This document shows positions 25,488-25,869 of a stretch of 32,276 bases of DNA, piece after piece. Source of the DNA: a virus (taxonomy: Duplodnaviria; Heunggongvirae; Uroviricota; Caudoviricetes). The notes below the pieces were generated by a model that did not search any database, was not told where the DNA came from, and saw nothing but the letters and a program-made list of their open reading frames with translations. Numbering within the stretch: position 1 is the stretch's first letter; every line of letters starts with the position of its first letter. Both the position numbers and the translations under genes were made by a program. Location of the stretch: positions 1-32,276 of IMG/VR virus record IMGVR_UViG_2703718849_000002. The stretch is one strand, 5' to 3'.

Positions 25488-25748
25488 TTAGCTGCTGTCT
25501 TTTTTATATAGCTCTTTGAGCGTATCAAAGACAATTTTCTTAACCATATCAGATTGTTGTTCTGCCATACGCTCTGCATCGTCAATGTAAACTGATGCAG
25601 AGCTTTGTTTAGCCAATGATTCTTCAATCGCTGCAATTATCTCTGAGTTCAGCGACCTGTTATTCATCTTCGCACGCTGCTTAATTTTCGCGTGGAGTTC
25701 ATGCGGAAGTCTCAAGTGAAACTGCGCCTCGTCGTATTTGCTGTACAT
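25488..25748 (-). CDS. mnt: Mnt-like ribbon-helix-helix repressor (Arc/MetJ family)
   Basis: C-terminal …DAERMAEQQSDMVKKIVFDTLKELYKK and N-terminal FHLRLPHELHAKIKQRAKMNNRSLNSEI resemble P22 Mnt; start taken at MYSKYDEAQF. Confidence 0.8.
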   Translation of the reverse strand: MYSKYDEAQFHLRLPHELHAKIKQRAKMNNRSLNSEIIAAIEESLAKQSSASVYIDDAERMAEQQSDMVKKIVFDTLKELYKKDSS

Positions 25749-25869
25749 CCTTGATGCCTCACCAGTTGGGTGGAATGGCATCGTAACCTACTGGATAAAT
25801 ACTCAATAGTACCATTTCGGTATGCAATCACATCATGGTTGCATCATATCATTCGTTTGGAGCAATGAA

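Follow-up and report, generated by a model that had tools for sequence, protein, structure and literature searches.

The gene between the DNA-ejection gene and the tailspike gene of this P22-like phage is an orphan mnt. On balance the locus is probably a functional mnt-only 'ant moron', in which a working Mnt gene, equipped with a promoter of its own (Pmnt) and one operator, lies antisense in the late operon before the tailspike gene. To find mnt next to the tailspike gene with arc and ant missing is ordinary, and the arrangement has been in the literature since 2008. Added here are a new placement of the operator, at 25809-25823, evidence that the orphan Mnt and its operator are under strong selection and co-vary in discrete specificity classes, and the finding that the promoter repressed by Mnt in P22 is gone from every mnt-only phage examined. 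The question raised in the phage L literature, whether such a gene is left over or serves a new function, is sharpened: a remnant is disfavored, and a role beyond autoregulation is implied.

Gene content of the gp16-tailspike junction

The window, meaning the whole stretch of 32,276 nucleotides that was analyzed, is the genome of a P22-like (Lederbergvirus-type) phage, with its genes in virion order. The genes that matter here are the following.

672-1358, minus strand: CI-type repressor gene, followed by cro, cII and replication genes.
6621-7379: gene for a Rha/KilAC protein (Pfam ANT), in the nin region of the early-right operon.
23401-25398, plus strand: gene for a gp16-like DNA-ejection protein, the last late-operon gene before the moron.
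25488-25748, minus strand: mnt, 86 aa, encoding an Mnt-family ribbon-helix-helix repressor with a C-terminal tetramerization helix.
25859-28071, plus strand: tailspike gene with its ribosome-binding site (GGAG at 25859-25862; ATG at 25870).

The nin region is followed by a Q-type antiterminator and then by late genes up to the gp16-like gene. Homologs of the latter are annotated as injection or DNA-transfer proteins in P22, L and Sf101, and the genes neighboring the modules of relatives match Pfam Phage_P22_gp16. The N-terminus of the tailspike is a P22-type head-binding domain (Pfam Head_binding, 2.8e-66), and gtr genes and then an integrase gene lie downstream. The gap between the gp16-like and tailspike genes is 471 bp and mnt is the only gene inside it. 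The sequence-only reading had described mnt as lying between gp16 and the tailspike gene without arc, ant or sieA, with a divergent intergenic region of 121 bp and a Rha-type gene in the nin region, and all of this is borne out. The intergenic region is 25749-25869. The ORF list has no arc, ant or sieA between the gp16-like and tailspike genes, and there is no Arc-like ORF of at least 30 aa within 25749-25869. No ant lies between mnt and the tailspike gene, the sole ANT-domain protein being the Rha/KilAC protein of the early-right region. Between 25200 and 26100 no known RNA family is matched in Rfam at E≤1, and this includes the sar antisense RNA, for which there is also no ant gene to oppose. 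The locus is an mnt-only 'ant moron', that is, an mnt insert between a gene 16 homolog and the tailspike gene with no arc or ant; the loci compared for this were those of phage L, Gally, VSe13 and Sf101. It is not a complete P22-type immI region, for which arc, ant, a strong Pant and sar are all missing.

The identification of mnt itself, also proposed from the sequence alone, is confirmed by domain and structure matches. Residues 7-49 of the product match Pfam PF03869 Arc (7.5e-15), the ribbon-helix-helix DNA-binding domain, and residues 57-82 match PF11423 Repressor_Mnt (3.4e-14), the tetramerization helix. The matches in the PDB are 1mnt (3.4e-19, residues 6-79) and the tetramerization domain 1qey (1.7e-8), and the protein is 49% identical to P22 Mnt. 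By these matches the predicted protein is full-length, has both family domains and is a member of the Arc/MetJ ribbon-helix-helix superfamily. The start is assigned to 25748. A longer ORF of 97 aa that starts at 25781 was rejected because the additional N-terminal residues lack conservation and a stop codon interrupts them in Escherichia sp. L092.

Mnt-only 'ant morons' were described in 2008 for ST64T, ST104 and Para1 (PMC2629481), and that of phage L was described in 2020, where its function is stated as unknown (Zaworski et al., PMC8022706). The mnt-only architecture of the window is already known and is common in E. coli and Shigella prophages. A 521-bp query is matched in 402 of 5,426 complete E. 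coli genomes (at 80% coverage or more in 146), window-type modules are present in more than 150 IMG/VR loci, and a search of species-representative genomes with an alignment of four sequences gives 6 loci. Sf101, IME10, ECO26.1 and E. coli prophages have the same module as the window, with 95-98% DNA identity (Sf101, 95%; IME10, 96%; the fragment ECO26.1, 98%) and 98-100% Mnt identity. In the RefSeq record of Sf101 mnt is the longer 97-aa ORF and is called 'partition protein ATPase'; in IME10 it is unannotated.

Comparison with better-known morons shows both likeness and divergence. The window shares with P22 immI an mnt gene that points leftward between gene 16 and the tailspike gene, a homologous Mnt with both domains, an operator palindrome directly after a conserved CAATAG, and homologous Pmnt hexamers. 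It differs from P22 in having no arc, ant, sar or sieA, in the loss of the Pant hexamers, and in its operator, which is GTACC-N5-GGTAT where that of P22 is GGTCCAC-G-GTGGACC. The morons of ST64T, ST104, Para1 and L are closer in layout: mnt is divergent from the tailspike gene without arc or ant, there is a hairpin near the mnt start, Pmnt is kept and Pant is decayed. However, L and ST64T belong to a different recognition class (QFNLRL, with AGACCAC-C-GTGGTCT) and have one more small gene, orf62, whereas mnt is the sole moron gene in the window; the sequence of the tailspike leader hairpin also differs.

The predicted operator, its specificity classes and selection on Mnt

An Mnt site very probably lies inside the intergenic region, as had been proposed, but at a different place. 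The sequence-only reading took an imperfect inverted repeat as the operator, and the features compared are these.

25762-25794, unstranded: imperfect inverted repeat proposed earlier, with arms CCAGTTGGGT (25762-25771) and AACCTACTGG (25785-25794).
25806-25826, unstranded: predicted Mnt operator, with core GTACCATTTCGGTAT at 25809-25823 and center at 25816.

The imperfect repeat exists. Its arms are complementary at 8 of 10 positions across a gap of 13 nt. When the 121-bp region is shuffled, an equal or better repeat turns up in 44% of cases. The repeat search of the region did not list it. Relatives break it without compensation (CCAATTGGGT paired with AACTTACTGG), and in VSe13 and JEP4 the spacing of the arms is altered. 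Its left arm falls inside another, conserved hairpin (25753-25782) and its right arm in the spacer of the mnt promoter; the whole sits in a region homologous to the Pant -35, the Arc operator and the mnt leader. It was rejected as the Mnt operator on the shuffle test (0.44), its decay in relatives and its absence from the repeat search.

The annotated P22 record, with its Omnt, Pant, Pmnt and Arc operator, served as the anchor for locating the operator, and mnt-proximal regions of P22, L, Gally, VSe13, JEP4, Sf101, IME10 and the window were aligned. All have CAATAG or a near variant followed by a palindrome. The core GTACCATTTCGGTAT occupies the same position as P22 Omnt in this alignment, 54 nt before the start codon of the tailspike gene and 68 nt away from that of mnt. 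The longest invariant intergenic block in 15 divergent loci is CAAT.GTACC.TTT.GGTA. Both the window and the complete genome of Sf101 contain the core TACC-N5-GGTA a single time, and no second operator is found elsewhere in the window, for example near the Rha/KilAC gene; weak matches with one mismatch at 1392 and 4473 are at chance level. Based on the Omnt position, conservation, co-variation with the recognition strand and uniqueness, the Mnt operator is likely 25806-25826, with the palindrome GTACC-N5-GGTAT as its core. The conserved palindrome is 25809-25823 and not the repeat at 25762-25794.

The palindrome stays at the same spot across specificity classes and co-varies with the recognition strand of Mnt. 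The pairs are listed by recognition strand, with the loci and the palindrome.

HFNFRM: P22, eps34 and Pluralibacter; GGTCCAC-G-GTGGACC.
QFNLRL: L and Gally (in Proteus one half-site is degenerate); AGACCAC-N-GTGGTCT.
QFHLRL: the window and relatives; GTACC-N5-GGTA[CT].
QINIRI: Kapi1 type; TGGTATAAC-G-GTTATACCA.
QFNVRM: L228 type; AGTAGTAC-G-GTACTAT.

QFHLRL and the GTACC palindrome are paired in Escherichia, Shigella, Salmonella, Buttiauxella, Serratia, Citrobacter, Klebsiella and Rahnella, among which the flanks diverge, and the same pairing is seen in a subgroup whose protein is otherwise much diverged (MEELETQFHLRL...). The recognition strand of the window Mnt is A-Q-F-H-L-R-L-P and that of P22 Mnt is P-H-F-N-F-R-M-P. 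The DNA-contact residues of P22 Mnt, reportedly Arg2, His6, Asn8 and Arg10 (Knight and Sauer 1989), align to Y, Q, H and a retained R in the window, so that three of the four differ. Judged from the altered contact residues and the altered operator, the window Mnt is of a separate specificity class and still of the Mnt family.

The possibility that mnt is a functionless remnant, decaying since the loss of arc and ant from immI, has been raised for phage L (PMC8022706). Some observations agree with it: Pant is decayed in mnt-only loci, one half-site of the Proteus operator is degenerate, and one Citrobacter copy has a broken mnt, with an in-frame stop and a mutated operator arm. However, the ORF is intact in the rest of more than 150 loci, the operator is the best-conserved intergenic block, and comparison of the ribbon-helix-helix domain (codons 1-48) with orphan homologs of other genera gives dN/dS of 0.04-0.07, with pS of about 0.7, near saturation, and pN of about 0.08 (range 0.07-0.12). 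Mnt is intact, and purifying selection on the DNA-binding domain is strong, which makes decay highly improbable as an account of the orphan gene. The polymorphism density among 154 near-identical window-type loci is too low to tell the elements apart.

Promoters and hairpins of the divergent region

Three further elements are predicted between mnt and the tailspike gene.

25753-25782, unstranded: conserved hairpin or inverted repeat, GATGCC..GGCATC, with inner CACC/GGTG.
25780-25806, minus strand: predicted Pmnt, with -35 TTGAGT (25806-25801), -10 TACGAT (25785-25780) and a 15-bp spacer.
25822-25844, plus strand: predicted hairpin ATGCAATC/GGTTGCAT, which follows the operator and precedes the tailspike ribosome-binding site; an inverted repeat listed by the repeat search.

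The predicted Pmnt is the positional homolog of P22 Pmnt (TTGAGA-17-TATCAT). The pattern TTGxxx-17-TAxxAT is kept in VSe13, JEP4, Buttiauxella, Serratia, L, Gally and Proteus, and a 2-bp deletion gives the window type its unusual 15-bp spacer. On sequence evidence, mnt has a palindromic operator adjoining its own promoter. Both directions were scored with a simple sigma-70 weight matrix and shuffles in 17 mnt-only loci and in ant-bearing loci.

Ant-bearing loci (P22, eps34, Pluralibacter), rightward: 13.9-15.5 bits (TTGACA-17/18-TATATT/TATTAT); shuffles as good, 0-1%.
Ant-bearing loci (P22, eps34, Pluralibacter), leftward Pmnt: 13.1 bits (TTGAGA-17-TATCAT).
17 mnt-only loci, rightward: best 2.7-5.8 bits; shuffles as good, 19-63%; top hexamers vary by lineage.
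17 mnt-only loci, leftward Pmnt: 6.3-10.6 bits (TTGxxx-(15-17 bp)-TAxxAT), in the homologous place.

These scores bear on the proposal that Mnt has been rewired to repress a tailspike promoter located in the 121-bp region, which would keep the tailspike gene silent during lysogeny and release it upon loss or titration of Mnt. P22 Pant (TTGACA-17-TATATT) scores 15.5 bits, whereas the best rightward match in the window, ATGGCA-17-AATACT, scores 5.7 bits and is equaled by 25% of shuffles. The window has no counterpart of Pant, all 17 of the mnt-only loci are alike in this, and the consensus scan finds no plus-strand promoter in 25300-26000. The repeat proposed as the operator is, moreover, of chance level. 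The tailspike gene needs no local promoter, because in Sf6 the ejection and tailspike genes adjoin with no moron between them and P22 with mnt-ant deleted still yields viable phage (PMC11016777, which also summarizes the immI region). On the other side, the predicted operator stands before the tailspike ATG where P22 Omnt overlaps the Pant start. Selection acts on Mnt and its operator with no other cis target in the complete Sf101 genome, a -10-like A/T element lies just upstream of the operator, and the module of L277 and JEP4 keeps to the tailspike gene though other moron genes, a complete ant module among them, lie upstream. Secondary tailspike promoters also exist in the P22-like prophage BTP1 (PMC7067206). 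Taken together, repression of such a tailspike promoter by Mnt is improbable.

No terminator-like site is found in 25300-26000, which includes the gp16-tailspike gap. With Pant lost and no terminator between gp16 and the tailspike gene, the simplest reading of the sequence is that the tailspike would be expressed by read-through of the late operon. The second half of the rewiring proposal, that the Rha/KilAC protein has taken over antirepression, finds no footing: its gene is in the early-right operon and there is no Mnt-type site near it.

Immediately upstream of the operator an A/T-rich, -10-like element is still present; it is GATAAA in the window and TATAAA in Serratia and L099-type loci. 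There may be a weak, unconventional or factor-dependent rightward promoter near the operator.

The mnt-proximal hairpin (25753-25782) covers the mnt Shine-Dalgarno region and overlaps the Pmnt -10, and its GATGCC..GGCATC is present in all mnt-only loci. Its predicted folds have an MFE between -10 and -19 kcal/mol, z lies between -2.3 and -4.5 for 11 of the 14 mnt-only sequences folded, and the RNAalifold consensus shows weak covariation, most pairs being invariant. The tailspike-proximal hairpin (25822-25844) has a compensatory variant, ATTCAAT/ATTGAAT, in L092. Its place is taken in other P22-like phages by a CCGTAGC..GCTGCGG hairpin, and an equivalent lies upstream of gene 9 in P22, eps34 and CUS-3. 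For this second hairpin RNAalifold was run on a MAFFT alignment that has offsets between sequences.

Possible roles of the orphan repressor

As a working moron, the locus would operate as follows. Mnt tetramers would bind the operator, which abuts the Pmnt -35 and has its center about 43 bp upstream of the predicted start, and Mnt bound there would set its own level; such autoregulation would be its minimal function. Read-through from the late operon would cross the antisense mnt and transcribe the tailspike gene without an Mnt-controlled promoter. In P22, Mnt reportedly stimulates Pmnt, indirectly, by shutting Pant (Vershon et al. 1987). That stimulation works through Pant, so without Pant autoregulation may have either sign. 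A further role is implied, because autoregulation alone would not sustain a dN/dS of about 0.05, and it could be (a) that of a roadblock or insulator before the tailspike gene against rightward transcription, or (b) repression of a target in trans.

Under (a), operator-bound Mnt together with the convergent Pmnt would keep unscheduled rightward transcription out of the tailspike gene during lysogeny, or would tune tailspike dosage late in infection; the transcription to be blocked could stem from upstream moron promoters or from basal activity of the late operon. In every relative examined the module immediately precedes the tailspike gene and separates the tailspike leader from the genes upstream, also in JEP4 (Rha/KilA), VSe13 and L277 (arc-ant-KilAC), where these include rightward genes. 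The operator is conserved without a promoter to repress, and an effect of the ant moron, perhaps of Mnt and Arc, on transcription into the tailspike gene was already suspected by Villafane et al. in 2008 (PMC2629481). In the window, however, the late operon alone is upstream, with no rightward moron gene, and antiterminated late RNA polymerase is expected to pass obstacles. Adjacency to the tailspike gene is also predicted by plain descent from an mnt-arc-ant-9 arrangement. Such blocking or tuning by Mnt is unlikely.

One form of (b) is trans-immunity, in which the orphan Mnt would repress the antirepressor genes of superinfecting or co-resident phages that have the same operator, shielding the prophage from induction. 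This accounts for purifying selection on a repressor without a local target, and it parallels P22 Mnt, which in lysogens protects against incoming P22. The loci surveyed argue against it. Among about 95 genuine IMG/VR operator loci listed, none has arc or ant downstream of the operator, and among 80 listed P22-type ant loci (one Ant family) the sole class-III site (GTACC-N5-GGTAC, QFHLRL) is that of the mnt-tailspike module of L277. No class-III operator stands before arc or ant among the roughly 95 operator loci and 80 P22-ant loci listed. Trans-immunity is on these counts very doubtful.

The case of L277 shows how the module behaves beside a complete antirepressor system. Its ant is governed by a CUS-3-type Mnt that has a separate operator and an accompanying arc-like gene, and a second, separate class-III mnt-operator module is present by the tailspike gene. 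From this coexistence, and from JEP4 and VSe13 where other moron genes lie upstream, the class-III module is judged to be independent of ant and to stay by the tailspike leader. A module bound to the tailspike gene in this way is compatible with a roadblock or insulator and also with descent from mnt-arc-ant-9. Somewhat more broadly, and tentatively, the mnt-operator module might be a self-contained device, in which a DNA-bound gate and a convergent promoter meter rightward transcription into the tailspike gene, or which acts on a target in trans; we regard this as rather unlikely. Its coexistence with a differently specified immI in L277, its presence in at least eight genera and the finding of class III without an antirepressor among the loci listed are compatible with such a gate.

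Some relatives have cargo genes behind mnt that point the same way and encode a Rap1a-like protein or a lipoprotein; in P22 the gene in this place is orf59a. Since these genes follow mnt in its own orientation, their arrangement suggests that regulation of a leftward moron operon was another ancestral role of Mnt; the window is without such cargo.

In BTP1 the antisense RNA STnc6030 is expressed from the prophage over the gp16-tailspike junction and gives superinfection immunity (Owen et al. 2020, PMC7067206). An antisense role of the mnt mRNA, by analogy, would be pure speculation. The two are alike in that a leftward transcript lies at the gp16-tailspike junction, antisense to the late operon. 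They differ in that STnc6030 is non-coding and starts within the tailspike gene, whereas the leftward transcript of the window encodes a conserved protein.

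Stem-loops and the predicted promoter between mnt and the tailspike gene

Three elements lie between mnt (25488-25748, minus strand), which encodes a ribbon-helix-helix repressor of the Mnt family, and the tailspike start codon at 25870.

25753-25782: conserved inverted repeat or hairpin, GATGCC..GGCATC (inner part CACC/GGTG), located between the start codon of mnt and the predicted -10 element of Pmnt
25780-25806, leftward: predicted mnt promoter (Pmnt) of the E. coli/Shigella type, 15-bp spacer
25822-25844: hairpin ATGCAATC/GGTTGCAT, shortly before the ribosome-binding site of the tailspike gene

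A hairpin corresponding to the one next to the mnt start, with predicted energies of -10 to -19 kcal/mol, is present in every mnt-only locus, that is, every locus with mnt beside the tailspike gene and neither arc nor ant. Apparent compensatory changes are found in Buttiauxella (GTCC/GGAC) and in Proteus, whose outer stem is TTGTC/GACAA. G.U pairs favor the plus (late-transcript) strand in several lineages. The hairpin in the tailspike leader occurs in a compensatory version, ATTCAAT/ATTGAAT, in one relative (L092). At this position another hairpin, CCGTAGC..GCTGCGG, is found in P22, eps34, CUS-3, L and others; stem-loops thus seem to be a general feature of the tailspike leader among P22-like phages.

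The short spacer of the predicted E. coli/Shigella-type Pmnt is due to a 2-bp deletion; in VSe13, JEP4, Buttiauxella and Serratia the spacer is 17 bp. Spacers of 15 bp are unusual in functional sigma-70 promoters, yet this is the most abundant Pmnt variant. In 25399-25487 (minus strand), beyond the stop codon of mnt, there is no terminator-like structure, so transcription of mnt may continue, in antisense, into the 3' end of the gp16-like gene. Such read-through would recall STnc6030, the antisense RNA at the same junction of the P22-like prophage BTP1 (PMC7067206).

Duplicated, decayed and rearranged loci

Some phages carry two mnt genes or modules. One IMG/VR phage (L277, 1500-4650) has a complete immI-like module, consisting of a CUS-3-type Mnt, an arc-like ORF, ant, a KilAC protein and a terminator, and a second, separate mnt-operator module of class III (QFHLRL recognition strand with a GTACC-N5-GGTA[CT] palindrome) immediately upstream of the tailspike gene. 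CUS-3 itself (locus L089, 2202-3240) has a tandem mnt pair with different recognition strands, and upstream of its ant lies an unannotated arc-like ORF of 46 aa (MKVKTLRMPEKLEKILEEKAKEECRSF...), within the annotated "boundary sequence bsq2".

The only clearly decayed mnt seen is in a Citrobacter locus (L096, about 3440-3760), where codon 5 is an in-frame stop; the left arm of the operator is also mutated, to GTACT. Three loci from Rahnella and metagenomes (L217, L221 and L222; 3300-4000) have a gene for an HNH endonuclease inserted directly behind the first codons of the tailspike gene, where it separates the operator and leader from the remainder of that gene. There mnt is followed by a Rap1a-like gene (T6SS immunity family) in L221 and L222, and by an ORF without a Pfam match in L217. 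In L208 (about 60 nt right of the operator match), what directly follows the operator has been replaced by a putative IS2-type insertion-sequence end. In Serratia (L095), the operator is followed after about 100 nt by a strong intrinsic terminator (AAGCCAGCC..GCTGGCTTTTTTT), ahead of a tail gene whose N-terminal sequence is unlike the P22-type tailspike start. In this locus, any transcript from the old position of Pant, the promoter that Mnt represses in P22, would be a short RNA.

Operator-like match elsewhere and database annotation

The cI-cro intergenic region contains ATAACCTATGGGTAT (1392-1406), which fits the operator pattern with one mismatch. With 1.3 one-mismatch matches expected per window, it is at chance level; it probably belongs to the CI/Cro operators. 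Mnt homologues in RefSeq entries NC_027398 (Sf101), NC_002371 (P22), NC_004348 (ST64T) and others are named "partition protein ATPase". This is a misannotation; the protein is a ribbon-helix-helix repressor of 83-97 aa.
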